The translations under genes and the position numbers were made by a program. The notes under the pieces were generated by a model, which was not told the DNA's origin, did not search any database, and was given only the letters and a program-made list of their open reading frames with translations. Positions 12,067 through 46,191 of a stretch of DNA of 64,000 bases are shown piece after piece; within the stretch, counting starts at the first letter, position 1, and each line of letters starts with the position of its first letter. Source of the DNA: Candidatus Aldehydirespirator sp. (GTDB lineage Bacteria > Actinomycetota > Acidimicrobiia > Acidimicrobiales > Aldehydirespiratoraceae); assembly GCA_965248735.1 (NCBI GenBank), contig OZ252146.1, positions 2,276,154 through 2,340,153 on the forward strand, written 5' to 3'.

Positions 12067-12468
12067 GTGGCCGCCAGCGGCACCACCCTCACCACCCTCA
12101 CCGGCATCAGCGACGTGCTCGCCGCCAAGATCCTCGGCCACATCGGCGACATCGGACGCTTCCCCAGCGCCGACCGCCTCGCCAGCTACGCCGGCACCGC
12201 ACCCATCGAAGCCAGCAGCGGCGACGTCGTCCGCCACCGACTGTCCCGACACGGCAACCGCCAGCTCAACAACGCCATCCACCTCGCCGCGCACGTCCAA
12301 ACCATCCGCCCAGGCCCCGGACGCGACTACTACCAACGGCGACTCAACACCGGCAACAGCCGCACCGAAGCCCTCCGATGCCTCAAACGACAACTCACCA
12401 AGAGCATCTACCGCACCCTCACCGCCGACGCCGCCCTCACCCCCCACAACGCCCCCGACTTGACATAG
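12067..12468 (+). pseudogene. IS110-family transposase, C-terminal fragment only
   Basis: 'LTGISDVLAAKILGHIGDIGRFPSADRLASYAGTAPIEASSGDVVRHRLSRHGNRQLNNAIH' is the IS116/IS110/IS902 C-terminal domain. The N-terminal DEDD domain is absent. Confidence 0.8.
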
Positions 12469-12473
12469 AGGCG

Positions 12474-13331
12474 CTATAAGGTCACGCCCACCCCGGCCGG
12501 GCCGGTGCGTGCCCCGCCGACCAGGAACAGGCCGACAGATCCAGGGCAAGGCACGAAGCCGATCCCACGTCGGGTCAGACCCGCCCCAGCCGGTGAGGCC
12601 CCACCAGTATGAGTGTCCCACGTCAGGGTCTTGGCCATGTGCGCGGGCACCCGAGCGAACGCAGACGCGACCGCGGCGGCCACTTGGTGCGCGCTGTAGC
12701 CGCTGCTGAGGTCGCCGAGCAGCGTCTGGCGGGTGACGCGCTCGACGAGGGTCACCACCGCGGAGCGGTTGTGCTCACCGATGATCAAGTCGCCCTCCCA
12801 GTGCCCGGCCTCGCTGCGCTCTGAGGCTGCCACGGGCCGCTCGCTGAGGGGCCGGATGTCGCCCAGGGGCCCGCGTTTGGCCTGTTCGCAGCGGCCTCGG
12901 GGCTTGCGGCGGCGCCTGCGGCGCGCCAGACGGCGCCAGGCCCCCGCCTCCAGACCCCGACGGCCTCGGGGGTCGTAGCACGCCGCGTAGATCGTCTCCG
13001 CGCACACCCGCCGCTCAGCGCAGCGGCCCTCGGTGCGCCATTGCGCGGCGACAGCATGCGGCGACCAGCCCATCGCCAGCATCTCAGCGGCCTCTTTGGC
13101 CAGCTCGGGATCCGCGGCCAGCTTGGACGCCCTCGGCCGCGCCGCCCGGGCGTCCGCGGCCGCCTGAGCGCCCACAGCGCAATAGCGGCTCCGCCCGCCG
13201 CCGCGGGCCAACTCGCGGCGCACCGTCGACGCGCACCGGCCCAGCGCCCGCCCGATCCGCTCAGCGCTGAGCCCCTCAATCGCCAAGGCCTCGAGCGCGG
13301 CGCGCTCCTCAGCCGAAAGCCTCCGTGCCAT
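12474..13331 (-). pseudogene. IS30-family transposase, 3'-truncated copy (copy 1)
   Basis: N-terminal 240 aa are collinear with the intact copy at 23557-24540 ('MARRLSAEERAALEALAIEGLSAERIGRALG...GHWEGDLIIG...'). Similarity is lost after 'MAKTLTWD', so most of the DDE domain is missing. The right IS end is near 13409. Confidence 0.8.
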
Positions 13332-13409
13332 ACTGGACACCTCCACCGGTCTGGTTGCTTCGTGGACACAGCCATCATGGCTGACGAGCAACCACCGGTG
13401 GAGCTTTCC

Positions 13410-13835
13410 AACCCTTACAGCGATCACTATTCTATGCCGCTCTCTGGCACATTCTCAGCCAACCCCGTAACTCTCACCGCTGGTCTGACTGCTATGGAAC
13501 TGTTTGATCGCGATCAGGTGCAGCGGATCAATCAACTCGGTGTACTTGCGCGGGATGGCATTCGCCAAGTCATAGAGAGTCGAGGAGTGCCCGCAAGCGT
13601 CACAGGTGCCGGTTCACTATTCCGAATCCACATGAAGCCGATAGCCCCGCGAAACTATCGTGAGACTTATCCTACACCTGAGCAGTCAGCCCGTCTGAGG
13701 AGACTCGTAGACAGTCTCCTCAACTTAGGAGTCCTCGTAACCCACAACTGTACAGGAGCTATTTCTACAGCCATGAGCGAAGCAGAGATTGAACATCTCA
13801 TCAACGTCATCGATTCTGCTATCCCTGAGATATAG
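13410..13835 (+). pseudogene. Class-III aminotransferase (glutamate-1-semialdehyde aminomutase-like), C-terminal fragment
   Basis: 'LSGTFSANPVTLTAGLTAMELF...VTGAGSLFRIHM...MSEAEIEHLINVIDSAI' is the C-terminal third of a class-III aminotransferase. It has no N-terminus, abuts the IS30 end, and is visibly lower in G+C. Confidence 0.6.
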
Positions 13836-14187: not shown

Positions 14188-16035
14188 TTGACAGACGAAG
14201 TTCTAGGAGACGAGCAGCCCGCCAGCGCTGACGGCGAACTCCTCCGCATCCGACACAGCGCCGCCCATGTCATGGCACAGGCCGTGCGTGACGTCTTCGG
14301 CGGGGATGCAGTGAAGTTGGGCATTGGCCCCGCCACTTCCGACGGGTTCTACTATGACTTCGAGCTGCCGCGCCCTGTTTCCGATGACGATCTGCCTCAG
14401 ATCGAGGAGCGCATGCGCGACATCATCTCGAGGGATGAAGCGTTCGTCGAGCAGGAGATCTCCGCGGCTGACATGCGAGACATGTTCGCCGACCAGCCAT
14501 ACAAGCTCGAACTAATCGACGGGATCCTGTCGTCGGGTCTGGACGATAACGGCGAGCCCATGCCGGAGGGTCAGTCGCCCCGTCTCACCATCTATCGGAA
14601 CGGAGCCTTCGCCGACCTCTGCCGCGGGCCCCACGTTGCTTCGACGGGGACGATCGATCCTGCTGCGGTCAAGCTCCTTAGCGTCGCCGGCGCCTACTGG
14701 AGGGGTGACGAGAAGCGCCCGATGATGCAGCGGCTGTACGGGACGGCTTGGAAGACACGCGAGGAACTCGAACAGTTCCTGTGGCGTCGAGCCGAGGCGG
14801 AGCGACGAGATCACCGACGGCTCGGCAAGGAGCTTGAGCTCTTCCACTTGGAGCCAACGGCCCCCGGCATGCCCTACTGGTTGCCGAACGGACTCAAGCT
14901 CGTCAACGTGCTACTGGACTTCTGGCGCGACGAGCACGAGCGTCGAGGCTACGAAGAGATCTCCGCGCCGCTCGTCAACGAGAAATCACTCTGGATCACA
15001 TCAGGGCACTGGGACCACTATCGCGACGACATGTTCATAATCCCAGTGTCCGAGCACCAGACCTACGGGCTGAAGCCGATGAACTGCCCGAACGCGATGA
15101 TCATCTTCAAACTGAAGACTCGGAGCTACCGGGACCTTCCCTACCGCCTGTCGGACTGCGACGTGCTTCACCGCAACGAGCGGTCCGGGACGTTGCACGG
15201 GCTCCTTCGCGTCCAGCGGTTCATGCAGGATGATGCCCACATCTTTTGCGAGGAAGGTCAGATCGAGGAGGTCTACCGAGACATATTTGATATCTGCGAC
15301 CGCTTCTACCACGTCTTCGGACTCGACTACCGTCTCCGACTCGGCACCCGGCCCGATGACTCGGTGGGCGACGACGAAAGCTGGGAGCGGGCGGAGGCCA
15401 CCCTCATCTCGATCCTTGAAGACCGCGTCGGCAAGGGTCGGTACCTGGTCGAGGAAGGAGGCGGTGCATTCTACGGGCCCAAGATAGACATAATGATGGA
15501 CGACGCCCTGGGCCGATCATGGCAAATGGGCACGATCCAGCTCGACTTCCAACTTCCTCGGCGATTCGACTGCACCTATGTCGACCGAGACGGGCAGAAG
15601 AAGCACCCGGTTGTTGTCCACCGGGTGATCTACGGGTCGATCGAGCGGTTCATCGGCATCCTCATCGAGCACACCGCCGGCTCATTCCCCCTTTGGTTGT
15701 CGCCTATCCAGGTGACGATTGTTCCCGTGCGATCCGAGTTCCTCGGCTACGGCAAGGATCTGGCCGAGCGCTTGCGCTCTGCGAGGATTCGCGCTTCTGT
15801 CCTTGACGAGGAGGGCTCGCTGCGGGCAAAGGTAAGGAAGGCGCAAGTCGGGCATGTGCCGGTCGTGCTGATCGTCGGTGGACGAGAGGAGTCGGAGCAG
15901 ACCGCCAGCGTCAGGATACGGGGCGTGGGCGAAGTCGGCAGCGTCGACGTCGTAAAGCTGATCGATGTCCTCGGCGACGAGATCTCCGCTCGCTCACTCG
16001 GCCTCGACGGACTCGAGGCGTCGTTGCGCACCTGA
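14188..16035 (+). CDS. thrS: Threonyl-tRNA synthetase lacking the N-terminal TGS domain (possible accessory copy)
   Basis: Editing-domain motifs 'RHSAAHVMAQAV' and 'LCRGPHV'. Class-II core 'DHRRLGKELELF', 'MNCPNAM', 'HRNERSGTLHGLLRVQRFMQDDAHIFC'. Anticodon-binding domain 'FPLWLSPIQVTIVPV'. The HxxxH motif lies about 25 aa from the start, whereas it is about 70 aa in for E. coli ThrRS. Confidence 0.85.
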   Translation: MTDEVLGDEQPASADGELLRIRHSAAHVMAQAVRDVFGGDAVKLGIGPATSDGFYYDFELPRPVSDDDLPQIEERMRDIISRDEAFVEQEISAADMRDMFADQPYKLELIDGILSSGLDDNGEPMPEGQSPRLTIYRNGAFADLCRGPHVASTGTIDPAAVKLLSVAGAYWRGDEKRPMMQRLYGTAWKTREELEQFLWRRAEAERRDHRRLGKELELFHLEPTAPGMPYWLPNGLKLVNVLLDFWRDEHERRGYEEISAPLVNEKSLWITSGHWDHYRDDMFIIPVSEHQTYGLKPMNCPNAMIIFKLKTRSYRDLPYRLSDCDVLHRNERSGTLHGLLRVQRFMQDDAHIFCEEGQIEEVYRDIFDICDRFYHVFGLDYRLRLGTRPDDSVGDDESWERAEATLISILEDRVGKGRYLVEEGGGAFYGPKIDIMMDDALGRSWQMGTIQLDFQLPRRFDCTYVDRDGQKKHPVVVHRVIYGSIERFIGILIEHTAGSFPLWLSPIQVTIVPVRSEFLGYGKDLAERLRSARIRASVLDEEGSLRAKVRKAQVGHVPVVLIVGGREESEQTASVRIRGVGEVGSVDVVKLIDVLGDEISARSLGLDGLEASLRT

Positions 16036-16048
16036 ACTGCCAGTGGTG

Positions 16049-16885
16049 TCAGGCGATGCCCACCGGAGGCTCGGCTGACGGGAGGGCTTCGTCGTAGACC
16101 TTGGCGGCGATCGTCGAAACGAGGGCCGCGCAGCGGCCAAGAAACTCCGCAACCCTAGGAGCGTCCGGGGGGTCCGGGGCCCAGGCAAGCGCCTGCTTCG
16201 CGATCTCCGAGAACTCGGGAAGGGCCTCGGCTATGTTGGCCGCGCAACCTCGTAGCTCAGCCTGGTAGACCCCGTGGCGGGCCATCACGAGCGCATGGAG
16301 CCCCCGCAGGACGGTGCGCATTGACCAGGTGCACCAGAACCGTGCGTCACGGGGTGTGTAGCCATAATCAGGGACAGGCTCAGTGGTGATAACCCGGCTC
16401 AGTCGGAGCAGCTCCTTCGGCAGATCCGGATACAGGGCCCGCGACAGCTTGGCGTCGGGACGATACCGCGGCAGCATCTGGGCGAGGCTCGCGCCGCGGA
16501 CGCAGACCGAGCACGTCGCCAGATTCACGCGCCGCTGCTCGCCGCTGGCATCTCCGAGGAGTTGGTCGAGAGAGAGCCACGCAATGTCGACCTCGGTCAC
16601 GACCGGATGGAGGAGATGGAGCCCCTCTGCCATCGCCTGCAACCGAGTCCGGTTCGGTGGGGTTCCCGACACCACGACGATGTCGGCGTCGGCGAACGGG
16701 GACATTGCCTTGCCCGAAGCTATGCTTCCCCGGACCATCACGGTGTCGCCGGGGCCGAGTTCACGCTTCAGTGCCTCCAAGGTGGCGTCCACGAGATCGG
16801 TGAAGGGTCGCACCATCAACGACCTGTGCCCTATGTTTACTAGCGTGCCCGAGTTGTCGACCGGGTGTGAGAGCAACGGCTTCAT
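16049..16885 (-). CDS. Nucleotidyltransferase-domain protein (AadA/ANT-like)
   Basis: 278 aa. Polymerase-beta-type NTase motif 'VMVRGSIASGKAMSPFADADIVVV' (GS-x10-DxD). Size and layout are similar to aminoglycoside adenylyltransferases. Substrate unknown. Confidence 0.5.
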   Translation of the reverse strand: MKPLLSHPVDNSGTLVNIGHRSLMVRPFTDLVDATLEALKRELGPGDTVMVRGSIASGKAMSPFADADIVVVSGTPPNRTRLQAMAEGLHLLHPVVTEVDIAWLSLDQLLGDASGEQRRVNLATCSVCVRGASLAQMLPRYRPDAKLSRALYPDLPKELLRLSRVITTEPVPDYGYTPRDARFWCTWSMRTVLRGLHALVMARHGVYQAELRGCAANIAEALPEFSEIAKQALAWAPDPPDAPRVAEFLGRCAALVSTIAAKVYDEALPSAEPPVGIA

Positions 16886-17263
16886 TTCCTGCTCGTTGAA
16901 GGGGATCGTGATGGAGGATCGCGCTGGAACCTATCTGAGGTGGGTCCGAGACTGCTCGGCCGGGTCAGGATCGGTGATCGAGGAGATTCTCCCCACCAAT
17001 GCCCGCCGATGGACCCCCGCGTTCGGAGCGGCGTGAAGTTGACGGCCGGCCACGAAGGCGGACGTTCGCTCTATCTGGCGTCCCGGCAGGGGGTCTCCGA
17101 TTGCGCAGCGCTGGACGTTCCGGGGTCGACGCTAGAGAGTCTGCTTGAACCATCAGGCTCCCGGAGCCAGCGGCGGGTCAGCGACCACCCGGCCCAACTC
17201 GGCCTACGGGCGCGGAGCCCGAGCCTTCCCGGTCACGCCTCGTGGGCGCCGTCCGGTGCGCTC

Positions 17264-18397
17264 ATGTTCCGGTTGATCGAAGCTTGGATGCGCAATGCCG
17301 CCCAGACGGTGCTCGGCGGCGAGGAAATCGTCACCCCGCTCGTAATCGACTGGGATCCCGGCGGGCGGATCCACGAACTGGCGGGGTTCTTCAACGATCG
17401 TCTCTTCCACCTAGAGGACCGTCGCCCGCAGGTCCTTCGCTACAGCGCAGATCCCGGCTTCCTGTCGATGCTGGCGGGGATGCCTCCAACCGACGAGACC
17501 GTCCGGTTGTGGGAGATCGGGCCGTTTCTGAGGAAGAGCCGACGCGGCGAACTGCGCGGGTCCGAGATCCTCCAAGCATTCACGATGCTGGACTACCACG
17601 CCATTAGTCCAAGCATCGGGGCCGCATCCGATGAGTTCTCAAGGATCCTTGCTGCTCAAGTCCAGCTTGCCGCGACGTGGACGGACGACCCGGCAGTGAA
17701 GCTAACCATTGTCGCGGGCTCGGAGAGCCTGGCGGACAAGCCGATCGCAGCGGCGGCAGAGCTATTGGCTGGTCCGGTCCTCGTCGAGGTCGTGCCCGAG
17801 GCGAAGCGGTACTGGAGGCTCCAGAGCTTCGTGTGCGCCCGGGGTCCCTATTCGCTGTTCAACATCCAGCTCGATGTGGAGAACGCGAAGCGCTTCTCCA
17901 TCGGAGTCCGGGACGGACGGCCGACACCGGGAATCGTCCACGCCAATCTCGCCTCGATCGAGCGTCTGATGCTGGTTGCATCATCGCACGCCCAGACCCT
18001 CGACAACCCGCAGTTCCCTCTGTGGCTGTCGCCGGTTCAAGTCCGATTGCTGCCCATCGACGAACAGCATCTTCGCTCGTGTGACCTCCTCGCAGCTTGG
18101 CTCGGCCGTGCCCCGCTTCGCTGCGATGTCGATGATCGGCCGGTCCCGCTTCGTCGTCGTCTCCGGCATGCCGACATTGAGTGGGTGCCCTTCACGGTCT
18201 GCATCGGACCAGCGGAGGCCGACCACGAGGGCGATTGGGGTGGGGCTCGACTGAAGGTTCGATCGCGTGACGGTGAGCTGACCGAGATGTCCGGCGCAGA
18301 GTTGCGGACGCTCATCTCCGAGCATGGTCAAGGGCTACCGTTCATCCCGCTCGGATACCGCAGAGTGGGGAGCCGAACGCCGCTGTCAGGGGCATAG
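17264..18397 (+). CDS. Divergent class-IIa aminoacyl-tRNA-synthetase-like protein (ThrRS-like catalytic core plus anticodon-binding-like domain, degenerate motif 2)
   Basis: Trimmed to 'MFRLIEAW'. C-terminal 'FPLWLSPVQVRLLPIDEQ' parallels the ThrRS 'FPLWLSPIQVTIVPV' encoded 1.3 kb upstream. The motif-2 region 'LRKSRRGELRGSEILQAFTMLDYHAIS' aligns to 'HRNERSGTLHGLLRVQRFMQDDAHIFC' but loses the RxE residues. Confidence 0.55.
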   Translation: MFRLIEAWMRNAAQTVLGGEEIVTPLVIDWDPGGRIHELAGFFNDRLFHLEDRRPQVLRYSADPGFLSMLAGMPPTDETVRLWEIGPFLRKSRRGELRGSEILQAFTMLDYHAISPSIGAASDEFSRILAAQVQLAATWTDDPAVKLTIVAGSESLADKPIAAAAELLAGPVLVEVVPEAKRYWRLQSFVCARGPYSLFNIQLDVENAKRFSIGVRDGRPTPGIVHANLASIERLMLVASSHAQTLDNPQFPLWLSPVQVRLLPIDEQHLRSCDLLAAWLGRAPLRCDVDDRPVPLRRRLRHADIEWVPFTVCIGPAEADHEGDWGGARLKVRSRDGELTEMSGAELRTLISEHGQGLPFIPLGYRRVGSRTPLSGA

Positions 18398-18544
18398 AGG
18401 CCGAGCGAACGGGCCGCATTATTCCCACGGGGGCACTGCCGGCGCTGAGCGAGGCCGTGGCCCGAGCGGCCCGTGACAGCAGCGAACAAGAGCGGGAGAC
18501 ACGACGCTTCTCGGCGAGGCGGTGTCAAGCTATCTGCGCTCGCT

Positions 18545-20140
18545 TTAGGACGAGTGCTGTCGGTGGGGCGTCAGCACCCGTGATCGACTCATTCGGTAGT
18601 GTTCGGATAGCGCGCCCGTCGATGCGACCACGAGCAGTGCGATGATCAGAACGACGAACGTCGCCGCCCACAACTCATCGAACCTGAGTTGCGCGGCCGA
18701 TGTCGCGAGGAGGGCCCCGAGCCCATCGCCGGTGGCCAGCCACTCAGCGAAGACAGCGCCCGAGGCCGCGAAGGGCCCCGCGATTCTGAGGCCGTCACAG
18801 AGCCCGACGACGCAGGAGGGGATCACGAGGAACAGCAGCCGGCGAATCCGTGAACAGCCGCCGACATTGGCCAGATCATGAAGTGCAGGGGGAATCCCCT
18901 CTAGCTCGCGCAACAAGACGAGGTGCAGTGGCAGGAACGTGGTGATGACGATGACGGTCGTTTCCAAGGCGAGACCTCGGCCCGCGAGCGATACGGCGAG
19001 CGGCACTAGGAGCAGCAGTGGGGTCGCTCTGGCGGCTGAGGCGACAAGGAGCACCGAGCGTTTCAAGGTAGGCACGGCGGCGGAGATCACAGCCGTGGCC
19101 GACGCGACCAGTAGGACGACTGCCATGCCGATGATCACTCGAACGAGTGTCGTCGCCGTGGCATCGATCACGTTTGATCGGAGTTCGCGGTCGGCGACCG
19201 CGGCTCGGAACACGCTGGCAGGCGAGCGGACGACAAGAGAGTCGCCGACCGGGAGCGTGACCGCAGCCCAGACGATCAGCAGAATCCCCGCGGAGAGGAC
19301 AACGGATCCGGGATTGGCCCGCATCGGCTCGTCGTCGCGGCGACCTTCGATCGGACCGCTCGCATCAATTGTGAGGCTGCCCACAGGCAATTGTCGCCGG
19401 AGGAGCGCTGCCACGCTGGCGGCGCCTAGGACGTACAGTGCGCAGTATCCCGCAACCGACCATGTCAGAAGAATCCGGGAACTCGTCTGATAGTTCAGGA
19501 CAAGGACACCGAGTCCCCGGTCCGAGCCGAGAAAGTCTGCGACCAGAGCGCCCAAGAGGCCAGCGGGCACTGCGACTCGTGAGGCGTCGAGCGCGGCGGA
19601 CACCAAATGCGGGAGTTCCAGATACCAGAACACCCGCCAGCGTCGTCCTCCGGAGACTCGGTCGAGCAGGGCCTCCCACTCCCGGTTGCGTTCCGCCGCC
19701 GCCATGATCGCCGCGGCCGCAACGAAGGTCGTGGAGACGGCTGCAAGGAGGATGCGACTGGTGGCCAATGAGAACGTGGACCCGAGTACTGGGCCGAGCA
19801 AGACGAATGGCATCGCCTCCAGGCACGCGAGCAGCGGCCGAGCAGATGATGAGGTCCCGATGAGAGCTGAGCCGATGCCGATCAGGGCGCCTAGACCAAT
19901 CCCAATCGCAGTCCCAGCGAGCGCGCCCGCCATGGTCGGCGGCGCGTGGTGAGCTACGAGCGGCCACGATTCAGCCATCGCGATGGCGAGGTCCCAAGGG
20001 AGCGGCAGCCGGTGACCGTCGACGAGGTTCGCCAGGAGCATCCATGTCGCGAGAACAAGCAGGAGGGCCCGCGTTACCTCCCAGTGCTTCTCGCTCGTCG
20101 GCCGCGACTTCACAACTAACCCGTGAAGCCGAGAAGACAC
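18545..20140 (-). CDS. ABC transporter permease, fused double-domain (NitT/TauT-type)
   Basis: 531-aa polytopic membrane protein, about twice the size of a single BPD-type permease. Overlaps the upstream ATPase gene. Confidence 0.7.
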   Translation of the reverse strand: MSSRLHGLVVKSRPTSEKHWEVTRALLLVLATWMLLANLVDGHRLPLPWDLAIAMAESWPLVAHHAPPTMAGALAGTAIGIGLGALIGIGSALIGTSSSARPLLACLEAMPFVLLGPVLGSTFSLATSRILLAAVSTTFVAAAAIMAAAERNREWEALLDRVSGGRRWRVFWYLELPHLVSAALDASRVAVPAGLLGALVADFLGSDRGLGVLVLNYQTSSRILLTWSVAGYCALYVLGAASVAALLRRQLPVGSLTIDASGPIEGRRDDEPMRANPGSVVLSAGILLIVWAAVTLPVGDSLVVRSPASVFRAAVADRELRSNVIDATATTLVRVIIGMAVVLLVASATAVISAAVPTLKRSVLLVASAARATPLLLLVPLAVSLAGRGLALETTVIVITTFLPLHLVLLRELEGIPPALHDLANVGGCSRIRRLLFLVIPSCVVGLCDGLRIAGPFAASGAVFAEWLATGDGLGALLATSAAQLRFDELWAATFVVLIIALLVVASTGALSEHYRMSRSRVLTPHRQHSS

Positions 20141-20877
20141 TGGCGCACCCGGTTACATGCTTCGTGGAAGCCACCTTGGGTCAGTGTGCTCAAAGTGCGC
20201 GGCCGATCCAGGTCTGTGTTCACCTCCGTGTACCTGCATGCGTCGTCGCCATGGAGCACGAGGATCCGATCAGCCATGAGCACAGCTTCAGTCACGGCGT
20301 GGGTCACCATGATCGTCGTGGTGCCTTCAGTCCAGGTCTCCATCTCCGCGGCTAGAGCTAGTCGCCTGAACTCATCGAGCCACGCAAACGGTTCGTCGAG
20401 GAGCAGCAGTTGCGGTTCACCCACCAAGGCCCGAGCCACCGCAACCCTCTGACGCATGCCGCCCGAGAGCTCTGCGGGCAGCCGACGGCCGATGGTTTGG
20501 AGGCCGACTAGTTCGAGCAGCCTTCGAGCACGTTCACGGTCGAAGCCGTTGACCCGTCGCCGGAGGCGGATCGGCAAGAGCACATTGTCTAGAGCTGACT
20601 TCCAGGGGACGAGCGTCGGATCTTGAAAGGCCATGCCGATCTTGCCGGAACGGGCGACCTCGACTGGATCCTGCCCCGAAAGGAGGATGCGGCCCTCCAG
20701 CGGTTCGTGCAGTCCCGCAAGCGCCCGAAGCAACGTCGACTTCCCGACGCCCGACGGCCCGACGACCGCAATCTTGGCTCCCTGGGCGGCTCGAAACGTC
20801 AGGCGGCGCACTAGCGTGGTCTCGCCGTATCCAAGGGACACGGCTTGAATGTCGACCGTCGGTGAGCGACGCGACAT
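20116..20877 (-). CDS. ABC transporter ATP-binding protein (NitT/TauT-type)
   Basis: Walker A 'GPSGVGKST', signature 'LSGGMRQRVAVARAL', Walker B 'LLLLDEPFAWLD'. Confidence 0.85.
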   Translation of the reverse strand: MSRRSPTVDIQAVSLGYGETTLVRRLTFRAAQGAKIAVVGPSGVGKSTLLRALAGLHEPLEGRILLSGQDPVEVARSGKIGMAFQDPTLVPWKSALDNVLLPIRLRRRVNGFDRERARRLLELVGLQTIGRRLPAELSGGMRQRVAVARALVGEPQLLLLDEPFAWLDEFRRLALAAEMETWTEGTTTIMVTHAVTEAVLMADRILVLHGDDACRYTEVNTDLDRPRTLSTLTQGGFHEACNRVRQCLLGFTG

Positions 20878-20884
20878 GCCGATC

Positions 20885-21916
20885 CTAGATTGATTCGAGC
20901 ACGCTTGTATCGAATAGACTTGGGTCCGCCGCTATTCCAAGAACATCCAGTGTTTGGAGATTGCTCACGATGGCATCTTCGGACATCGAAAAGAGTCCGA
21001 ACTCGTCCGTTACCGGTGACACAATCAGTTCTGCCTGGTCGTGGGCCTCCAGTTTCTGAGTCTCCGGGTCGAGCCCCTCGTTGGCTGCATAGATGTCGAT
21101 TGTGGCCGCCACCGCGGCGTCGGGATCGCCGATGGCGTCTATCCAACCGCGTCGTTCTGCTCGCATGAACCCCCTGATCGCACCGCGTCGAGTGTCTAGA
21201 TCCTGTTCCCGCGCAATATAGACATTCTCGAATAGGTCGAAGCCGAAGTCAGCCAGAAGCATCGTTACTGGAGAAGCTCCCTGCGATCGCAGGATATTGG
21301 GCTGCGCCGTGAAATAGCCTAACAGGGCATCTACGTCGCCAGTAGTTAGAGGCTCGACATCGAACTGGATGGGGACTTTCGTCAGGTCAGCCTCGGTGAG
21401 TCCGTTGATGACGAGGAACGAGGTAAACGCGAGATCGTTCGTCGGGGATACACCAACTACGAGTCCTCTCAAGTCGTCTGGTGTGCGCACCGGCCGGTCC
21501 TCAAGCGAGACAATTGTGAACGGGTTCTTCTGGAAACGGGCGCCGATGATCCGAAGATCCGCACCCTGCGCTGCAGCTGCCGCTGTAACGTCCGTCGAAG
21601 CCATGCCCACAAGCGCGTCGCCCTCAGCGACGATGGCGGGAACGAGAACACTCGGCCCGCCGGGTCGCAGAGACACGCTGAGGCCCTCCTCGGCGAAGTA
21701 GCCGCGTTGATCGGCGAGGTAGGTGCCAGCGAAGCTAACGGTCTTGAGCCAAGACAGCTGCACCTTGATTGCCTGAAGGTCTTCTGCGCTTGGCGCGGTA
21801 TCGGAGTCGCCGGAGCAGGCGGCGAGTGTTGCACCGACAGCGGTTGCCGCGGTGCTGCCTGCCAGCAAGGCGAGAAGCCGCCGCCGGGTCAGAGTGTGTT
21901 GGTGCACGGTACTCAA
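20885..21916 (-). CDS. ABC transporter substrate-binding lipoprotein (NMT1/THI5/SsuA-like) with Tat-type signal
   Basis: 'TRRRLLALLAGSTAATAVGATLAAC' is a twin-arginine signal plus lipobox. Body resembles NMT1/SsuA-type binding proteins. First gene of the SBP-ATPase-permease operon. Confidence 0.7.
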   Translation of the reverse strand: MSTVHQHTLTRRRLLALLAGSTAATAVGATLAACSGDSDTAPSAEDLQAIKVQLSWLKTVSFAGTYLADQRGYFAEEGLSVSLRPGGPSVLVPAIVAEGDALVGMASTDVTAAAAAQGADLRIIGARFQKNPFTIVSLEDRPVRTPDDLRGLVVGVSPTNDLAFTSFLVINGLTEADLTKVPIQFDVEPLTTGDVDALLGYFTAQPNILRSQGASPVTMLLADFGFDLFENVYIAREQDLDTRRGAIRGFMRAERRGWIDAIGDPDAAVAATIDIYAANEGLDPETQKLEAHDQAELIVSPVTDEFGLFSMSEDAIVSNLQTLDVLGIAADPSLFDTSVLESI

Positions 21917-21942: not shown

Positions 21943-22383
21943 GGATGGCCGGCTCACACTTCAGCGTTGTGCGGGGTGTGCGGTTGGTCGGAACTGCGAT
22001 GCCGTGCCCGGGCGCACCCGAATCCGAGATCGACGAGCACCATCAGGATCGTCACTGCGGTGAGTGCGAGGGTGTAGTCGCCGACGAGACGGTTCCCCCA
22101 GTCGACTTGCTCGCTGAACATGTCGCTGAGCATCACGACCACGACCATCCGATAAGCGATGCCGATCGAGTCCGAGATCGCGAACGCGGTCCACGACAGG
22201 CCCGCGGCTCCAGCTACGGCGCAAGGCACTACACCGCCGAAGAGCACGAGCGGCAGGCCCCGCGACTTGACCATGATGGACTCGGACCACGCGACCAGCC
22301 TCGTGCTGGCTGGAAACCACCGGCGCCCGCGGTCGAGCAGCTTGGGTCCGTGCAGTCGGCCCAGATGGAACGCTATGGGGTCG
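21943..22383. repeat. 441-bp direct repeat, copy 1 (contains a 3' fragment of the DedA/VTT-like gene)
   Basis: Near-identical (3 mismatches seen by eye) to 24651-25091. Encodes 'DPIAFHLGRLHGPKLLDR...' to the same stop as the full gene. Confidence 0.85.
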
Positions 22384-22393
22384 GCAACCACCA

Positions 22394-23014
22394 CTAGAGC
22401 TTGCCCACCCACATGGGCGATATCGGACCCGGTCGGCGGTCGCCAAACATCATCCCTGCGAAGGCGAGTCCGTTCCGCGCCGTTGCGAGCAAGTCCTCCA
22501 GACTCCGAAGCCCCTCATAATTGTCGAGTTCGTCGGGCACATTTGCTCGGATCGACTCGATATAGGTATACTCAACATCAGAGGTATCGGCGGTCCACAA
22601 TCGGCCTGGCTGAGTTGCCTCTCCCTCCGATGCGAGTTGGTGGAGTATCTGAAGATCGAGCGTCGTGAGCCACTCTCGCTGCAGATCTCTCACATCTGAT
22701 ACGGTTGCGTGCCCTCTACTAAAGAACTCGTTAAGGACTATTACCTCTCTCCCCCAGTAACGCTCGTATGCATTGTGGATACCTTGGTCGTCAAGTGTCT
22801 CCTTCAGCTTGGCTATTAGCGGTCGCTGCTCGGCCAATGTCGTGGCGAGATCTTCACTCGAAATATAGCCAGCAACTGCCATCGCAATGGCGTTCAGTGG
22901 AGGGATTAAGGCTCCTGCCAAGTCTTCTGCGGCCTTCCTAGCTGATTTTCTCCCCAACATAGATGTGTCCCTTACGCTACTGATTGGTTGACATTGAGAC
23001 GGGTATAGCCGCAC
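22394..23014 (-). CDS. Hypothetical protein, low-G+C foreign gene
   Basis: 206-aa ORF (likely start 'MLGRKSARKAAEDL') in a segment of about 48-50% G+C by eye. No family recognised. Confidence 0.5.
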   Translation of the reverse strand: MRLYPSQCQPISSVRDTSMLGRKSARKAAEDLAGALIPPLNAIAMAVAGYISSEDLATTLAEQRPLIAKLKETLDDQGIHNAYERYWGREVIVLNEFFSRGHATVSDVRDLQREWLTTLDLQILHQLASEGEATQPGRLWTADTSDVEYTYIESIRANVPDELDNYEGLRSLEDLLATARNGLAFAGMMFGDRRPGPISPMWVGKL

Positions 23015-23548: not shown

Positions 23549-24618
23549 GGCAAGCTCTAGTGGTGGTTGCTCGCGAGGGCAGTGTGGCGGTCTTGGGCGT
23601 TGTGCCAGTGGTGGAGGCGTCGGGGCATGGTGTTGATGCGGTCCTCTATGGCCCACAGTCGGGCTTGGCCGACGTCGAGGTCGGTGCCTTTGGGCAGCCA
23701 TCTTCGCAGCATGGAGTTGTTCTGCTCGTTGGTCGGCCGCTGCCAGGGGCTGTGGGGCTCGCAGAAGTACACTTCGAGGCCGGTGTCAGCCTCGATGCGG
23801 GGCCAGCGGGCCATCTCGCTGCCCCTGTCCCGGGTCAGCGTCTTGGCCATGCCCGACGGCACCCGGGCGAACGTTGCGGCCACGGCGGAGGCGACCTTGT
23901 CGGCGCTGTAGCCGCCGTGGAGCGCGCCGGGCAGCGTGTAGCGGCTGGTGCGCTCCACGAGGGTGACCACCGCTGAGCGGTTGCGGGCGCCGATGATCAG
24001 ATCGCCCTCCCAATGCCCGGCCTCGCAGCGCCCCTCGACAGCGGCGGGCCGCTCGGCGAGGGACCGGAACTGGCCCAGAGGCCCGCGTTTGGCCTGCTCG
24101 CAGCGCCCGCGGCGCTTGCGGCGGCGGCGGCAGCGCACCAGACACCGCCACGACCCCGCGGCCAGGCCCCGCCCGCCAGCGGGGTCATAGCACGCCGCGT
24201 AGATCGTCTCCGCGCACACCCGCCGGCCCGGCGGGCGGCCCTGAGCGCGCATCAGACCCGCGACGGCGTGGGGCGAGCAGCCCTCAGCGAGCATCTCGGC
24301 CACCTCCGCGGCCAGGCCGCTGTCCGCGGCGAGCTTGCACGTCCTCGGCCTCGCCGCGGCGGCGTCGGCGTCCGCCTGGGCGTCCAAGGCGCTGTATCGG
24401 ACCCGCTCGCAGCGGGCCGCCTCGCGGCGCACTGTCGACGCGGCCCGCCCCAGCGTCTGAGCGATCCGCTCAGCGCTGAGCCCCTCGTTCATCATCGCCT
24501 CTATCGTCGCGCGCTCCTCGAACGCGAGCCTCTGTGCCATACTGGGCACCTCCACCGGTCTGGTTGTTCTGTGACACAGCCATCATGGCTGAACGAGCAA
24601 CCACCGGTGGAGCTTGCC
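23549..24618 (-). mobile_element. IS30-family insertion sequence, apparently intact (copy 2, 1070 bp)
   Basis: Imperfect terminal IRs GGCAAGCTCtagtGGTGGTTGCTCG (23549-) and CGAGCAACCACCggtgGAGCTTGCC (-24618). 'GAC' is present on both flanks, a possible 3-bp TSD. Full-length transposase ORF inside. Confidence 0.8.
23557..24540 (-). CDS. IS30-family transposase
   Basis: 'MAQRLAFEERATIEAMMNEGLSAERIAQTLG' HTH. 'GHWEGDLIIG', 'TLTRDRGSEMA' and 'YFCEPHSPWQRPTNEQNNSMLRRWLPKGTDL' are the DDE catalytic-region hallmarks of IS30. Confidence 0.9.
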   Translation of the reverse strand: MAQRLAFEERATIEAMMNEGLSAERIAQTLGRAASTVRREAARCERVRYSALDAQADADAAAARPRTCKLAADSGLAAEVAEMLAEGCSPHAVAGLMRAQGRPPGRRVCAETIYAACYDPAGGRGLAAGSWRCLVRCRRRRKRRGRCEQAKRGPLGQFRSLAERPAAVEGRCEAGHWEGDLIIGARNRSAVVTLVERTSRYTLPGALHGGYSADKVASAVAATFARVPSGMAKTLTRDRGSEMARWPRIEADTGLEVYFCEPHSPWQRPTNEQNNSMLRRWLPKGTDLDVGQARLWAIEDRINTMPRRLHHWHNAQDRHTALASNHH

Positions 24619-24650: not shown

Positions 24651-25091
24651 GGATGGCCGGCTCACACTTCAGCGTTGTGCGGGGTGTGCGGTTGGTCGGA
24701 ACTGCGATGCCGTGCCCGGGCGCACCCGAATCCGAGATCGACGAGCACCATCAGGATCGTCACTGCGGTGAGTGCGAGGGTGTAGTCGCCGACGAGACGG
24801 TTCCCCCAGTCGACTTGCTCGCTGAACATGTCGCTGAGCATCACGACCACGACCATCCGATAAGCGATGCCGATCGAGTCCGAGATCGCGAACGCGGTCC
24901 ACGACAGGCCCGCGGCTCCAGCTACGGCGCAAGGCACTACACCGCCGAAGAGCACGAGCGGCAGGCCCCGCGTCTTGACCATGATGGACTCGGACCACGC
25001 GACCAGCCTCGTGCTGGCTGGAAACCATCGGCGCCAGCGGTCGAGCAGCTTGGGTCCGTGCAGTCGGCCCAGATGGAACGCTATGGGGTCG
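24651..25091. repeat. 441-bp direct repeat, copy 2 (3' part of the intact DedA/VTT-like gene)
   Basis: See copy 1. The two copies bracket 22384-24650. Confidence 0.85.
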
Positions 25092-25363
25092 CTCAAGGCC
25101 ATGCCGACGGCTGCGGCGATGACGAAGCGCAGCGGACCGAGGCGCCCAACCAACAGGACCTGCGTTGTGACGCGTGCGTCCATTATCGCCAACAGCAACG
25201 GCATGACCACGAGCATGCCCGGAGCGAGCGCACGGCTCGCGAACCCGGCTGCGGTATAGGCTGCTAGCGCCACGGCGAGGCTCTGATCCAACACCGCGGG
25301 CCGTCGGCCCACTGGGGGGTGTCCGGGTGCGTCGACAACCACCTGAATCCCCGGCCGACTCAT
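24662..25363 (-). CDS. DedA/TVP38-like (VTT-domain) membrane protein
   Basis: 233-aa polytopic protein. 'DPIAFHLGRLHGPKLLDRWRRWFP...SIMVKTRGLPLVLFGGVVPCAVAGAAGLS' resembles the VTT-domain core. Confidence 0.5.
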   Translation of the reverse strand: MSRPGIQVVVDAPGHPPVGRRPAVLDQSLAVALAAYTAAGFASRALAPGMLVVMPLLLAIMDARVTTQVLLVGRLGPLRFVIAAAVGMALSDPIAFHLGRLHGPKLLDRWRRWFPASTRLVAWSESIMVKTRGLPLVLFGGVVPCAVAGAAGLSWTAFAISDSIGIAYRMVVVVMLSDMFSEQVDWGNRLVGDYTLALTAVTILMVLVDLGFGCARARHRSSDQPHTPHNAEV

Positions 25364-25827
25364 CCGAGCCTTGGGCCGAGTCTGCCGAGTTCGGGCGGCA
25401 ACGGCCCCGACAGACCGTCACACTGCAAGTGCAGCGTGTAGAGGTCTGTGAGTTGGCCTAGTTCCGGCGGTATGGGCCCCGACAAACCGTCTTGGCACAG
25501 GCTCAGCATGTGGAGGTTTGTGAGTTGGCCGAGTTCCGGCGGTATCTTCCCTCGCAGGCCGAGGCAATTCAGTTCGATATGCGTTATGTGACCCGTGCGG
25601 TTGGTGGTAATGCCGAACCACAGTCCCACCGGTACATGGCCATCCCAACTCCAGGTACCGGTTGGCTTCGGCCTGTCCCACCGCCAGTTGGGGCCGCCGG
25701 TCGACTTATGAAGTGCCATCAACACAGCCCGCTCACCGTCAGCTTCGCGCGCCCCGGCATCTGCTGGCAGTTCGGGTGTGGAAGCGTCGAGCACGGCCGG
25801 CTTCCCCGAGTCTCCCACGGTCATCAT
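25360..25827 (-). CDS. Leucine-rich-repeat protein (plant-specific-type LRRs), short
   Basis: 'ALHKSTGGPNWRWD...WFGITTNRTGHITHIELNCLGLRGKIPPELGQLTNLHMLSLCQDGLSGPIPPELGQLTDLYTLHLQCDGLSGPLPPELG': 24-residue LxxLxLxxNxLSGxIPxELGxL repeats. Confidence 0.6.
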   Translation of the reverse strand: MMTVGDSGKPAVLDASTPELPADAGAREADGERAVLMALHKSTGGPNWRWDRPKPTGTWSWDGHVPVGLWFGITTNRTGHITHIELNCLGLRGKIPPELGQLTNLHMLSLCQDGLSGPIPPELGQLTDLYTLHLQCDGLSGPLPPELGRLGPRLG

Positions 25828-25948
25828 AGCGAGGTGGGCGCCACGCTCATGCGTTGCGGTCTCCTGCCCAGTCGATCTCCTGTGATCGGCCCGACAACAC
25901 GAGATCGAGTCCACGTGAGAATGCCGCGAGACCGGATCCGCCTGCGAG

Positions 25949-26324
25949 CTATCGTTGAGGGTCAGTTCCGTATTGCGTCTCGAGCTTGTAGACAATTGCG
26001 GCGACGTGTTCCGACAGTCCCTGGATCCAGTCGGCCAATTCCTGGCCATACCCGTAACGCGTACTCGCCTCGTATGCTCGTAGCAATTCGGGACGCAGCC
26101 GGTGAACATCGTCCAGGTGGTCAAAGATCGCCTTTGCGTTGGTGAAGTATCTCAGAATCAAGCGAAAGACGCAACTTGGCAAGCGAACGACGCAACTTGG
26201 TGAGCCGGTAGAGTTCTGGCGGTATCGGCCCCGACAAATCATTCGAATGGAAGTAGAATGCATGGAGGTTTGTGAGTTGGCCGAGTTCTGGCGGTATCGG
26301 CCCCGACAAGCGGTTGTGTGCCAG
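25949..26324 (-). pseudogene. LRR-protein gene remnant (5'-truncated by the IS30 fragment, internally frameshifted)
   Basis: One frame gives 'LAHNRLSGPIPPELGQLTNLHAFYFHSNDLSGPIPPELYRLTKL'. A second frame continues with 'ILRYFTNAKAIFDHLDDVHRLRPELLRAYEAS...'. There is no start codon context. Confidence 0.4.
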
Positions 26325-26602
26325 GGCAAGCTCTATCGGTGGTTGCTCGCGAGGGCAGTGTAGCGGCTCTCGGCGCTGTGCCAGTGGTGGAGGCGTCGGG
26401 GCATGGTGTTGATGCTGTCCTCGATGGCCCACAGTTTGGCCTGGCCGACGTTGAGGTCGGTGCTTTTGGGCAGCCAGCGGCGGATGATGGCGTTGTTCTG
26501 CTCGTTGGTGGGCCGTTGCCAGGGGCTGTGGGGCTCGCAGAAGAACACCCGCAGCCCGGTTTGGGCCTCGATGCGGGGCCATCGGGCCATCTCGCGGCCC
26601 TG
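26325..26602 (-). pseudogene. IS30-family element, 3'-terminal fragment (copy 3)
   Basis: Starts with the same IR (GGCAAGCTCTATCGGTGGTTGCTCG). Encodes 'GREMARWPRIEAQTGLRVFFCEPHSPWQRPTNEQNNAIIRRWLPKSTDLNVGQAKLWAIEDSINTMPRRLHHWHSAE...', collinear with the C-terminus of copy 2. Cut at about 26602. Confidence 0.8.
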
Positions 26603-32125: not shown

Positions 32126-33715
32126 CTACCCTCCTCTCGTCAAGCGCGAGACCGCCTGTTGTTGTTGCTGTGCGGCCGCTGAGTCCACGACCCCGTCCAT
32201 GTACGACTCGATGGTGAGTTGTCGGCCACTGGTCGGCTCGGTCGCGGTGCAGGAGATCCGGCCGTCGGTCGAGACTGAGACAGACACCTCGACCGGTGAA
32301 CCCGCCTTGAGATCGGGAAGGTCCGTGAGTTGCCCGTCGAGCACCCGCCGGTTGTTCACCACCTCTTCAGAGGGGCGCGACCCGGCCTGCTCGTAGAGCT
32401 GTACGCGGATCTCCCTTTGGTTGTCCAGGATTGTGGCGTAGGTGGCGCTCTTGCTGACCACCGGCAGCGGAGTGTTGGGCTCGAGCAGATGGTGAACGAA
32501 CTGCCGGGTGCCGCTGGAGTCGTGACTGTCGTGCAGCAGGATGCCGAGAGCGCGGGGGAGCACGCCGGCTGAGGGCCTCAAAGCGAGCCCGCGACTCGAC
32601 TTCGACGAACGTTCGCCCGTGCCCGAGGCCAGAAACCGCTGGGGGTTGCGGGCTCTATTCAGCGCCGCGGCGTGCAGCGCAGCGCCTTTCGCTACCGCGA
32701 GGTCGGGGTCGTTTAGGTGAACCCGCACATCGAACTGGCGGTTGAGTGCCGCGGCGATCATCGGCATGTGTGTCGATCCGCCGACGAGAATGATCTCGGT
32801 CAGCGATGAGCGACTCTTGTTCCTAGCTTCCTCAATGGTGCGTTCGACCACTTCCATTGTGGCCGTCACCAAGTCGCGGCATAGCGCCTCGAAGTCGTCG
32901 CGTCGAACGTGCACCGTGAGGCGGTTGCCGGGCAAGTAGAGCGTGACGGTGGTGGCCTCTCGGGTGCTGAGCTGACGCTTGGCTCGCTCGACCGAGTTGG
33001 CGACTTGCAGCATCAGGTCGTCGTCGTCAGCCAGGTCGGGGTCGCCCACGATTCCCGCGGCGCGTTCGATGATGAAACCGCCGAGTCGCTCGTCCCAGTC
33101 GAGTCCGCCCATCTGGCTCAGACCGTCTGTGATCAGCACGCTGGGTCCGTGCTCGGTGAGCTCCAGCACCGTCGTGTCGAAAGTACCGCCGCCGAGATCG
33201 TAAACCAGCACGAGCCCCGACGCTCCGGTGTCGACACCGTATGAGATCGCCGCCGCGACGGGCTCGTCCACCAGTTCCATGAGGCTCAATACGGCGATAC
33301 CAGCCGCTAGGGCAGTCGCCTCTCTCTCGCGAGAGCCGAAGTAGGCCGGAACGGTTATCACCGCAGCCAGATCCTCCGAGCTGAGACCCAAGGCGAGGGC
33401 CGCGCTGCGTGCAAGCCCGTCGAGGATTATCGCCGAGATGCCCTCGGGCGTGAATGAGGCCGATCCGAACCTCCTCGTGATGTCGGTGCCCATCTGACGC
33501 TTGATCGCGGTGACGACACTGTCCGGTTCTATGATGCCGAGATCCTTGGCGTCGGCGCCGACAATGGGTTGCCCCTCATCGGGAAAGTAGACAACCGAAG
33601 GCGTCAGCTTCTCGCTGTCTTCGTTCAGTACGGGCACGGCCTCCCCGGCCTCATTGACAGCAGCTACCACTGAGTACGTGGTGCCCAGATCGATTCCGAT
33701 GGGACGTGGTGGCAC
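32126..33715 (-). CDS. Hsp70-family ATPase (copy 1), lacking the C-terminal helical lid
   Basis: 'IGIDLGTTYSVVA', 'VITVPAYFG', 'VYDLGGGTFDTTVLE' and 'IILVGGSTHMPMI' are actin-fold Hsp70 phosphate and adenosine motifs. 529 aa versus about 620 for DnaK. Confidence 0.85.
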   Translation of the reverse strand: MPPRPIGIDLGTTYSVVAAVNEAGEAVPVLNEDSEKLTPSVVYFPDEGQPIVGADAKDLGIIEPDSVVTAIKRQMGTDITRRFGSASFTPEGISAIILDGLARSAALALGLSSEDLAAVITVPAYFGSREREATALAAGIAVLSLMELVDEPVAAAISYGVDTGASGLVLVYDLGGGTFDTTVLELTEHGPSVLITDGLSQMGGLDWDERLGGFIIERAAGIVGDPDLADDDDLMLQVANSVERAKRQLSTREATTVTLYLPGNRLTVHVRRDDFEALCRDLVTATMEVVERTIEEARNKSRSSLTEIILVGGSTHMPMIAAALNRQFDVRVHLNDPDLAVAKGAALHAAALNRARNPQRFLASGTGERSSKSSRGLALRPSAGVLPRALGILLHDSHDSSGTRQFVHHLLEPNTPLPVVSKSATYATILDNQREIRVQLYEQAGSRPSEEVVNNRRVLDGQLTDLPDLKAGSPVEVSVSVSTDGRISCTATEPTSGRQLTIESYMDGVVDSAAAQQQQQAVSRLTRGG

Positions 33716-33741
33716 AGTTTTCTCCTACCTGTTTCTCCTAC

Positions 33742-36540: not shown

Positions 36541-36746
36541 GCTTGGAGCCGCGCTATCAGGGGCATTGTCCCATCAATCCCTGCACTACTTCCGCGGCTG
36601 GGATCTCCTACTGACTTGAATGTCTCGCAACCCCACGAGTCAATCCGACCGGAAGACTCACCCTTCAAGATGACGCGGTCTGCGGCATGAGTCGTCTCTG
36701 AGAGTTCAGCGCCAGCATGTTCCACAAGTACGGGCGTATCGCTCAT
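36537..36746 (-). CDS. Small hypothetical protein (69 aa), translationally coupled on both sides
   Basis: 4-nt overlaps with both the upstream and downstream genes. No recognisable domain. Confidence 0.4.
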   Translation of the reverse strand: MSDTPVLVEHAGAELSETTHAADRVILKGESSGRIDSWGCETFKSVGDPSRGSSAGIDGTMPLIARLQA

Positions 36747-37702: not shown

Positions 37703-37826
37703 TGCTGTCCGACGTCCACCACACGATGAGAGCGACCGTCAGCACAATGACGAACCCGACGTGTAGCGCGCTCCAACAACGACGGAGCACCTTGTAGAGG
37801 GGCGGAGGCGGAGGGTCCGGGTTCAT
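37611..37826 (-). CDS. Small single-TM protein (71 aa)
   Basis: 'MNPDPPPPP...' followed by TM 'ALHVGFVIVLTVALIVWW'. ATGA overlap with the stop of the upstream GTPase gene. Confidence 0.45.
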   Translation of the reverse strand: MNPDPPPPPLYKVLRRCWSALHVGFVIVLTVALIVWWTSDSNGPDLLDDWWGRILDVQNSIARSVPFPWDA

Positions 37827-42032: not shown

Positions 42033-42050
42033 AATCGGCCCTCAGACTGT

Positions 42051-43223: not shown

Positions 43224-43232
43224 GACAGGAAA

Positions 43233-46145: not shown

Positions 46146-46191
46146 CTTGGTCGGTCTCTTCCAATCACCACGCTAGAGCCGTTCTGAACCC

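Follow-up and report, generated by a model that had tools for sequence, protein, structure and literature searches.

The window analysed in this study is a stretch of 64,000 nt from the genome of Candidatus Aldehydirespirator sp., and the region of interest is a gene islet at positions 14188-21916 (the whole islet extends over about 13.4-23.5 kb). The islet carries a second threonyl-tRNA synthetase (ThrRS) gene, a gene for a ThrRS-like paralog, a nucleotidyltransferase (NTase) gene and an importer operon, and is a horizontally acquired copy, bracketed by insertion sequences (IS), of a rare modular cassette. Open reading frame (ORF) calls and domain profile searches placed the six genes where an earlier note on this DNA had described them:

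14188..16035, + strand: ThrRS2, bacterial-type threonyl-tRNA synthetase without TGS domain, 615 aa (TIGR00418, 606 bits)
16049..16885, - strand: putative small-molecule nucleotidyltransferase of the ANT/AadA fold (AlphaFold2 model with pLDDT 94.8 and structure matches)
17033..18397 (predicted start; the ORF opens at 16940), + strand: ThrRS-like paralog with archaeal-type catalytic and anticodon-binding domains (NF003068, 177 bits)
18545..20140, - strand: fused double ABC permease (two BPD_transp_1 stretches; dN/dS 0.21)
20116..20877, - strand: ABC ATPase (PF00005, 114 bits; the nearest NCBIfam models are of sulfonate, taurine and nitrate types)
20885..21916, - strand: NMT1/THI5-family substrate-binding lipoprotein (SBP) with Tat signal and lipobox (PF09084, 147 bits)

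The genome is 4.19 Mb in one contig, with a G+C content of 68.3%. The G+C content of the islet is 63.7%, which corresponds to the 4th percentile of equal-sized windows, and the G+C content at third codon positions (GC3) is 0.66-0.79 in the islet genes versus 0.93 in the housekeeping thrS. This TGS-bearing housekeeping copy is located at G000:C1:3413634-3415385, 1.1 Mb from the islet. The genome thus has two thrS genes, while exactly one was found in each of 60/60 relatives, 36 of them from the same genus. The thrS genes of these relatives are all TGS-bearing, with frames of at least 656 aa wherever the gene is unfragmented, and the ThrRS-like paralog is absent in all 60 relatives searched. The islet is flanked by the following features:

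12067..12468, + strand: IS110-family transposase fragment in the left debris (PF02371 Transposase_20, E 1.3e-22)
12474..13427, - strand: IS30-family transposase, 3'-truncated, left boundary (HTH_38 and partial rve, profile positions 4-75 of 102)
about 13419..13835, + strand: C-terminal third of a class-III (GSA-aminomutase-like) aminotransferase, cut by the IS30 (PF00202 positions 284-378 of 403; NF000818 positions 297-424 of 429)
21943..22383: partial duplicate (441 bp) of the 3' part of a VTT/DedA gene, right edge of the islet (VTT_dom; second copy at 24651-25091)
22394..23014, - strand: 206-aa ORF with a G+C content of 55%
23557..24555, - strand: IS30-family transposase, intact-looking, right boundary (HTH_38 and full rve)

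Acquisition is indicated because the thrS duplicate and the paralog are missing from the 60 relatives, the G+C and GC3 values are shifted, and IS30 and IS110 elements flank the islet. The earlier note had suggested acquisition from a lower G+C content and flanking IS30, IS110 and aminotransferase remnants, and had proposed a search for a full-length, TGS-containing thrS elsewhere in the genome. These points are borne out by the profile matches, the computed composition and the housekeeping gene. The situation that it named as contrary to its view, a sole thrS with same-locus orthologues in relatives, does not apply to this genome with two thrS genes and to its 60 relatives with one TGS-bearing gene each. 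The two IS30 copies listed share 80% identity, and the G+C content of the aminotransferase fragment is 62%. The two direct VTT/DedA copies differ by 3 mismatches in 441 bases and bracket the 206-aa ORF and the right IS30. The 206-aa ORF has no match in Pfam, NCBIfam or PADLOC.

ThrRS2 matches the TIGR00418 equivalog with 606 bits (cut-off 383.65) over model positions 1-561 of 565 and contains the tRNA_SAD, tRNA-synt_2b and HGTP_anticodon domains. The editing motifs HSAAH (HxxxH) and CRGPH (CxxxH) are present, and the zinc ligands Cys334, His385 and His511, motif-2 Arg363 and Glu365, Lys465 and motif-3 Arg520 are all kept. ThrRS2 shares 44% amino acid identity with the housekeeping enzyme and has a dN of 0.117 against a relative with 81% identity. 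The TGS domain (PF02824) was not found in ThrRS2. The gene begins with TTG preceded by AGGAG, 22 residues ahead of the first position of the TIGR00418 model. A hidden TGS exon or upstream extension was considered and rejected, with an in-frame stop lying three codons upstream. The description of an enzyme intact in its editing and catalytic motifs and its anticodon-binding domain, and lacking TGS, is thereby upheld in every part.

The missing TGS domain that the earlier note pointed out is no peculiarity of ThrRS2. TGS is missing in all 120 best homologues of ThrRS2, which share 57-87% identity and come from Chloroflexota, Actinomycetes metagenome-assembled genomes (MAGs), Haliangium and others. 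A single thrS was found in 12/12 Chloroflexota genomes, mostly with frames of 579-626 aa. The lack of TGS is a clade trait, because it is shared by the 120 best homologues and by most of the single thrS genes of Chloroflexota. TGS-less ThrRS forms a large ordinary clade that serves as the normal sole ThrRS of Chloroflexota, and the loss of TGS is no special adaptation, so that the notion of a TGS-less ThrRS as something unusual has to be corrected. With ThrRS2 coming from a normal ThrRS lineage, only its status as a second copy is special here. In the ThrRS tree, the ThrRS enzymes of the cassettes described below do not form one clade, and therefore a single recruitment of ThrRS is not established.

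The ThrRS-like paralog was originally read as a 377-aa protein that had lost the motif-2 RxE residues. The loss of the Glu stands (it is Ser), while the Arg is kept and the protein is longer. Compared with a relative sharing 76% identity, dN/dS is 1.6 for codons 1-31 of the ORF, 0.43 for codons 32-108 and 0.19 for codons 109-485. The GTG at 17033 has GGAG 4 nt upstream, and the relatives are 451-481 aa long. Because codons 1-31 evolve like non-coding DNA and the later codons are constrained, the predicted start is near this GTG, giving about 454 aa. The paralog matches NF003068 with 177 bits, below the cut-off of 484, over model positions 215-607, and the archaeal editing domain PF08915 was not found in it. 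It shares 24% identity with ThrRS2, and its best match in 185,579 species genomes is to archaeal ThrRS with 31-32% identity. The paralog is an archaeal-type ThrRS catalytic and anticodon-binding unit without an editing domain, and no decayed copy of ThrRS2. It retains the anticodon-binding domain and the majority of its pocket residues. The motif-2 and motif-3 Arg, the two zinc His, Asp383, Gln484 and Asp486 are in place, whereas Asp replaces the zinc Cys, Ser the motif-2 Glu, Gln the Lys465 equivalent and Ile the Arg375 equivalent. The Lys465 equivalent is lost in the subclade of the window and L007, a metagenomic contig, and the Arg375 equivalent in the window copy alone. The active site is thus remodelled, and the protein is still under purifying selection, as judged from these residues and the dN/dS values.

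We define here a cassette ThrRS-like family, to which the paralog belongs, by a length of 450-480 aa, an archaeal-type catalytic domain with an HGTP anticodon domain, a zinc Cys replaced by Asp or Asn, a variable motif-2 Glu and a neighbour of the NTase subfamily. A residue table of eight members shows Asp at the zinc Cys position in seven and Asn in one, and E, Q, N or S at the motif-2 Glu position. Arg363, Gln484, Asp486, His511 and Arg520 are invariant in the eight members, and the anticodon-binding motifs PLWL.P.QVR, DVDDR and WVP are well conserved. The ThrRS-like protein has no match on plasmids, and a scan of metagenome contigs with the ThrRS-like protein P0003 also gave no match; the profile search for further ThrRS-like proteins was word-indexed and non-exhaustive. 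Two reviews of aminoacyl-tRNA synthetase (aaRS) duplicates describe nothing like this protein for ThrRS. A further protein, P0004 (619 aa, on a 92-kb contig), is a full-length archaeal-type ThrRS with an editing domain and Asp at the zinc Cys position, and may represent an ancestor form of the family.

The NTase was modelled with AlphaFold2 (pLDDT 94.8), and its best PDB matches are AadA 6fzb (TM 0.59, Foldseek probability 1.00, 12% identity), AAD(9) and ANT(4'), with 11-14% identity overall. The AadA-like nucleotidyltransferase noticed earlier on the opposite strand is therefore confirmed by fold. At the sequence level it is not assigned to AadA, with PF01909 at E 0.012 as the only match and no NCBIfam match. 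G53-S54 and the catalytic acidic triad D66, D68 and D100 are conserved. In the helical domain R194 is invariant, W187 and C214 are near-invariant, and an F-W-C-x-W...L-R block is present in the closest relatives. The NTase has a dN/dS of 0.20 and, because of its fold, is predicted to act on a small molecule. Relatives are rare, numbering 333 among 1.84 billion representative proteins. Neither aaRS nor SBP genes adjoin the distant relatives in 20/401 Actinomycetota genomes and on two Bacillus plasmids, and these relatives hence say little about the cassette. Another more distant relative (L129, 8235-14090) lies with an HpcH/HpaI aldolase, Ldh_2 and a CapK-type AMP-ligase near flagellin genes, a CapK/Ldh_2/HpcH trio that is also found with the ThrRS-like gene of the P0003 contig.

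The importer is of the NitT/TauT type, as previously suggested, and is NitT/TauT/ThiY-like. An NMT1 SBP with an export signal (RRRLL...LAAC in the sequence), a BPD_transp_1 permease and an ABC ATPase are encoded in one operon. The best solved relative of the SBP is ThiY (3ix1, E 3e-11). The window SBP shares only 22-28% identity with the other cassette SBPs, and thus importers have been exchanged at least three times, the recruited kinds being two distant NMT1 types and one ECF type. The NTase and importer genes are tightly coupled in two other loci, with a 2-bp gap in L096 and overlaps in L127.

The earlier note missed the recurrence of the islet. The islet is not a one-off; it is a copy of a recurrent, rare cassette found across very different bacteria, with host G+C contents from 33% to 66%. 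Nine NTase-subfamily loci were compared, the window included, of which eight are independent of the window's own lineage; they are a sample and no census. The closest to the window is L007, in which NTase, paralog, double permease, ATPase and SBP follow the window order with 74-78% protein identity; the five shared genes have dN/dS values of 0.18-0.26, indicating purifying selection. Other loci are arranged as follows:

L095: NTase, NMT1-ABC importer, LysRS-like gene, TGS-less ThrRS
L096: shortened ThrRS, NTase, NMT1-ABC importer, ThrRS-like gene, Peptidase_S51
L098: Amidohydro_2, TGS-less ThrRS, ThrRS-like gene, NTase, ECF transporter
L099-101: gene set as in L098 but with an NMT1-ABC importer, on an element with integrase, primase and DUF3987
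L127, 334-8868: Peptidase_S66, NTase, NMT1-ABC importer, two PheRS-alpha-like genes (375 aa; 418 aa with FDX-ACB), Fic
L016, Chloroflexia MAG OY969916.1, 8624-15607: ThrRS, ThrRS-like gene, NTase, ECF transporter

An importer lies beside the NTase in 7/8 of the closest relatives looked up and in 9/9 subfamily loci, including the window and L016. It is of the NMT1-ABC type in L007, L095, L096, L099-101, L127 and L128 and of the ECF type in L098 and L016. Class II aaRS genes are present in 8/9 subfamily loci, and the ninth contig (L128) ends just after the SBP. They occur as ThrRS with a ThrRS-like gene, ThrRS with a LysRS-like gene, or two PheRS-like genes, and L127 shows that the module is not restricted to ThrRS. 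The constant core of the cassette is thus shown to be an AadA-fold NTase genetically coupled to a high-affinity importer, with an attached pair of class II aaRS genes. Pairwise identities are congruent, with window and L007, and L098 and L016, pairing up for ThrRS, ThrRS-like protein and NTase alike. Evolution is slow in ThrRS (58-70% identity) and fast in the ThrRS-like protein (25-42%) and the NTase (30-40%). A peptidase of the MccF (S66) type is present in L127 and in the P0003 contig, and one of the MccG (S51) type in L096. As a control, 83 other ThrRS-centred loci (1.39 Mb) were scanned with the NTase model, which matched only the cassette locus L016. The association of the NTase with the ThrRS cassette is therefore specific. 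No member of the NTase subfamily was found in 400 other Chloroflexota genomes. In OY969916.1 the cassette is a patch of 45-54% G+C between flanks of 62-67%, and a native thrS may have been displaced there by the cassette copy.

We tentatively favour the reading that the islet is an acquired module that takes up and modifies a ThrRS-directed, possibly aminoacyl-nucleotide-like compound and replaces the target of this compound, and that it serves protection or utilisation and not the self-resistance of a producer. In this scheme, the compound would be imported by the binding-protein-dependent importer and O-nucleotidylated by the ANT-like NTase. In the sister cassettes it would also be cleaved by the MccF/MccG-type peptidases or the amidohydrolase. 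The extra ThrRS would secure the supply of threonyl-tRNA, and the ThrRS-like protein would bind or process the compound or tRNA(Thr), or serve as a decoy for them, and would not work as a standard synthetase. The reading is suggested because the NTase shares its fold with antibiotic O-adenylyltransferases and has intact catalytic carboxylates, because the accessory slot of the sister cassettes holds S66 and S51 peptidase families, because the NTase-importer core is constant across different aaRS specificities (Thr, Phe, Lys), and because the cassette is mobile. The MccF/S66 and MccG/S51 peptidase families detoxify aminoacyl-nucleotide inhibitors of aaRS (PMC9239234), and aaRS duplication is a classic target-level defence (PMC11252418). 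A scheme of import, modification or cleavage and continued charging accommodates all parts of the cassette, although we put this forward with some reserve.

Several observations weigh against it. An importer is counter-intuitive in a resistance module, and its repeated recruitment makes uptake central, which may point to metabolism rather than defence. ThrRS2 has none of the known resistance substitutions, and its relatives at 81% and 65% identity lie outside any cassette, in unrelated, partly housekeeping-like contexts. No thrS other than the cassette copy was detected in the 11.3-Mb Chloroflexia genome OY969916.1, which implies that this copy simply serves translation there. No hydrolase is present in the window's copy of the cassette. 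Finally, the ThrRS-like gene also occurs in biosynthesis-like clusters, together with a 668-aa ThrRS, a CapK-type ligase, a methyltransferase and an aldolase in the P0003 contig, and with KS, HAD, sulfatase and MFS genes in L008.

The main rival, a possible but somewhat unlikely one, is an uptake-and-conversion pathway. A vitamin- or nucleobase-like precursor would be imported and activated by the NTase as a nucleoside monophosphate conjugate; the ThrRS-like protein, in which the tRNA-binding domain is retained and residues that contact ATP are changed, would ligate threonine to this precursor or transfer the precursor to or from tRNA(Thr), and the canonical ThrRS would supply Thr-tRNA or be immune to the product. 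Such a pathway would fit the translational coupling of the NTase to importer genes in L096 and L127, the three kinds of importer recruited, and the pyrimidine-precursor binder ThiY as best solved relative of the SBP. ECF systems typically carry micronutrients, and the importers of L098 and L016 are of this type. The biosynthesis-like clusters around the ThrRS-like gene and the CapK/Ldh_2/HpcH trio beside a more distant NTase relative point in the same direction, and the variable motif-2 Glu (E, Q, N, S) suggests a changed ligand at the nucleotide site. However, the window cassette contains no carrier protein, exporter or further tailoring genes, and the loss of the Lys465 equivalent (window and L007) and of the Arg375 equivalent (window) speaks against adenylate chemistry. 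The MccF/MccG-type peptidases and the switch to PheRS-like pairs would also be left unexplained. A more speculative reading, which we regard as unlikely, sees the ThrRS-like protein, NTase and importer as a previously undescribed pathway, in which an imported molecule would be nucleotidylated and then handled in the remodelled adenylate pocket of a tRNA(Thr)-binding look-alike. It would amount to either a split second-step charging of a non-canonical substrate or a decoy-synthetase immunity against an aminoacyl-adenylate mimic, and the PheRS- and LysRS-like sister cassettes would do likewise for other amino acids.

A reading along the lines of the earlier note takes ThrRS2 for the immunity gene of a producer of a ThrRS-targeting natural product, with the paralog and the NTase as biosynthetic enzymes. 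A second, divergent thrS is indeed present, BorO and ObaO provide a precedent (PMC11252418), and the P0003 contig has a ThrRS-like gene and a 668-aa ThrRS inside a biosynthesis-like cluster. However, neither a modular polyketide synthase (PKS) nor a nonribosomal peptide synthetase (NRPS) condensation (C) domain was found in the 4.19-Mb genome, and no biosynthetic cluster was found in the 64-kb window, where IS elements and conflict systems surround the islet. Its transporter works as an importer and not as an exporter. The obafluorin immunity enzyme ObaO is changed at Gly463 (to Ser/Ala) and Leu489 in E. coli numbering (PMC11252418), but ThrRS2 keeps both residues, with FYGPK and DFQLP unchanged. 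We therefore consider producer self-resistance very unlikely. A stress back-up pair, for example under zinc limitation, with the Asp/His/His ThrRS-like protein as a zinc-sparing enzyme, is quite improbable too. ThrRS paralogs in Zur regulons are documented (PMC2770081; PMC9437257), and the zinc Cys is Asp in seven of eight ThrRS-like members and Asn in the eighth. However, no Zur-box-like site was found in the window (0 matches to the consensus TGAAAATNATTTTCA with up to 3 mismatches), ThrRS2 keeps its Cys/His/His site, and the ThrRS-like proteins have lost other catalytic residues too; the NTase, importer, peptidases and PheRS/LysRS-like variants would be left unexplained. It is highly improbable that the pair works like the split ThrRS of Crenarchaeota, with the ThrRS-like protein charging tRNA(Thr) and ThrRS2 mainly editing in trans. 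Of the two partners only ThrRS2 has an editing domain, and ThrRS-cat/ThrRS-ed is a precedent (the NF011500 family was matched; A. pernix ThrRS-1, 3a31), but all catalytic residues are present in ThrRS2, which reaches the score of a full equivalog, the ThrRS-like protein is the degenerate partner, and the partner in L095 is LysRS-like.

Further searches covered the wider neighbourhood. No tRNA genes, as a sign of an orthogonal pair, were found in the window or in seven cassette loci, and no T-box or other Rfam family was found in the 11-26 kb part of the window. The only match of anti-phage defence models was a marginal cyclase hit to the NTase core, and promoter and terminator scans were uninformative. 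Repeats of 72 nt that share 68-100% identity and are spaced 72 or about 750 nt apart were observed at 25378-26303, in and just past an unannotated 263-aa ORF on the minus strand (25360-26151), and are followed by a partial third IS30 copy at 26318-26600. An 11-kb stretch with 52-55% G+C at 37823-48737 (- strand) looks like an NTP-dependent conflict-system island, encoding Double-GTPase 2, GAP1 (N2 and M domains), an fn3-containing 979-aa protein, an Hsp70-like ATPase and a GrpE-like protein. At 32126-36573 (- strand), a second Hsp70-like ATPase (532 aa) adjoins a 943-aa HerA/DUF87-like protein, which may be another conflict-type pair.

Target-directed genome mining relies above all on extra aaRS genes as its beacon, and such genes are also known to bring about antibiotic resistance. 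Here the extra ThrRS does not stand alone as an immunity gene. It belongs to a mobile module that is conserved across several phyla, has an exchangeable synthetase (Thr, Phe, Lys) and also brings an enzyme of antibiotic-modifying type, an importer and a new ThrRS-like family. Should the protective reading hold, the cassette would be a transferable multi-layer resistance module against aaRS-directed compounds and would hint at natural aminoacyl-nucleotide-like inhibitors of ThrRS, PheRS and LysRS. If the metabolic reading is true, it would represent a new job for synthetase paralogs.

The islet shares features with several known systems. Like the immunity ThrRS enzymes ObaO and BorO of obafluorin and borrelidin producers, it provides a second, divergent, catalytically intact and horizontally mobile thrS beside the housekeeping gene. 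Unlike them, it comes without a PKS/NRPS cluster nearby or elsewhere in the genome; ThrRS2 retains Gly463 and Leu489, belongs to an ordinary TGS-less clade and moves together with an importer, an ANT-like NTase and a ThrRS-like protein. The NTase resembles AadA/ANT(3'')(9), AAD(9) and ANT(4') in having a Pol-beta NTase domain with a helical substrate domain (TM 0.5-0.6) and the G-S...D-x-D motif with a third acidic residue. It differs in its 11-14% identity, the missing match to the AadA C-terminal family and its own helical-domain residues, and its partners are importers and aaRS genes whereas those of the AadA/ANT group are integron cassettes. The families of MccF (S66) and MccG (S51) fill the accessory slot of sister cassettes (L127, P0003 contig, L096), where the members are known by family match only; the window copy has no such gene, and the known MccF/MccG substrates are aspartyl-nucleotides aimed at AspRS, whereas the cassette synthetases are of Thr, Phe and Lys types. 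The crenarchaeal ThrRS-cat and ThrRS-ed are likewise two ThrRS-family genes with complementary domains, one without an editing domain, but in the islet the editing-less partner is archaeal-type with a degenerate site and the editing partner is a complete bacterial ThrRS. The zinc-responsive ThrRS duplicates (Zur-regulon paralogs; Anabaena T2) share with the islet a duplicated ThrRS, one with an altered zinc site; the islet lacks a Zur box, while in the described paralogs the zinc ligands are intact and no NTase or importer accompanies them. The window importer, finally, has the NMT1-fold SBP (ThiY nearest solved), permease and ATPase of ThiXYZ and NitT/TauT importers, but its similarity to ThiY is limited to E 3e-11 and its permease is a fused double domain.

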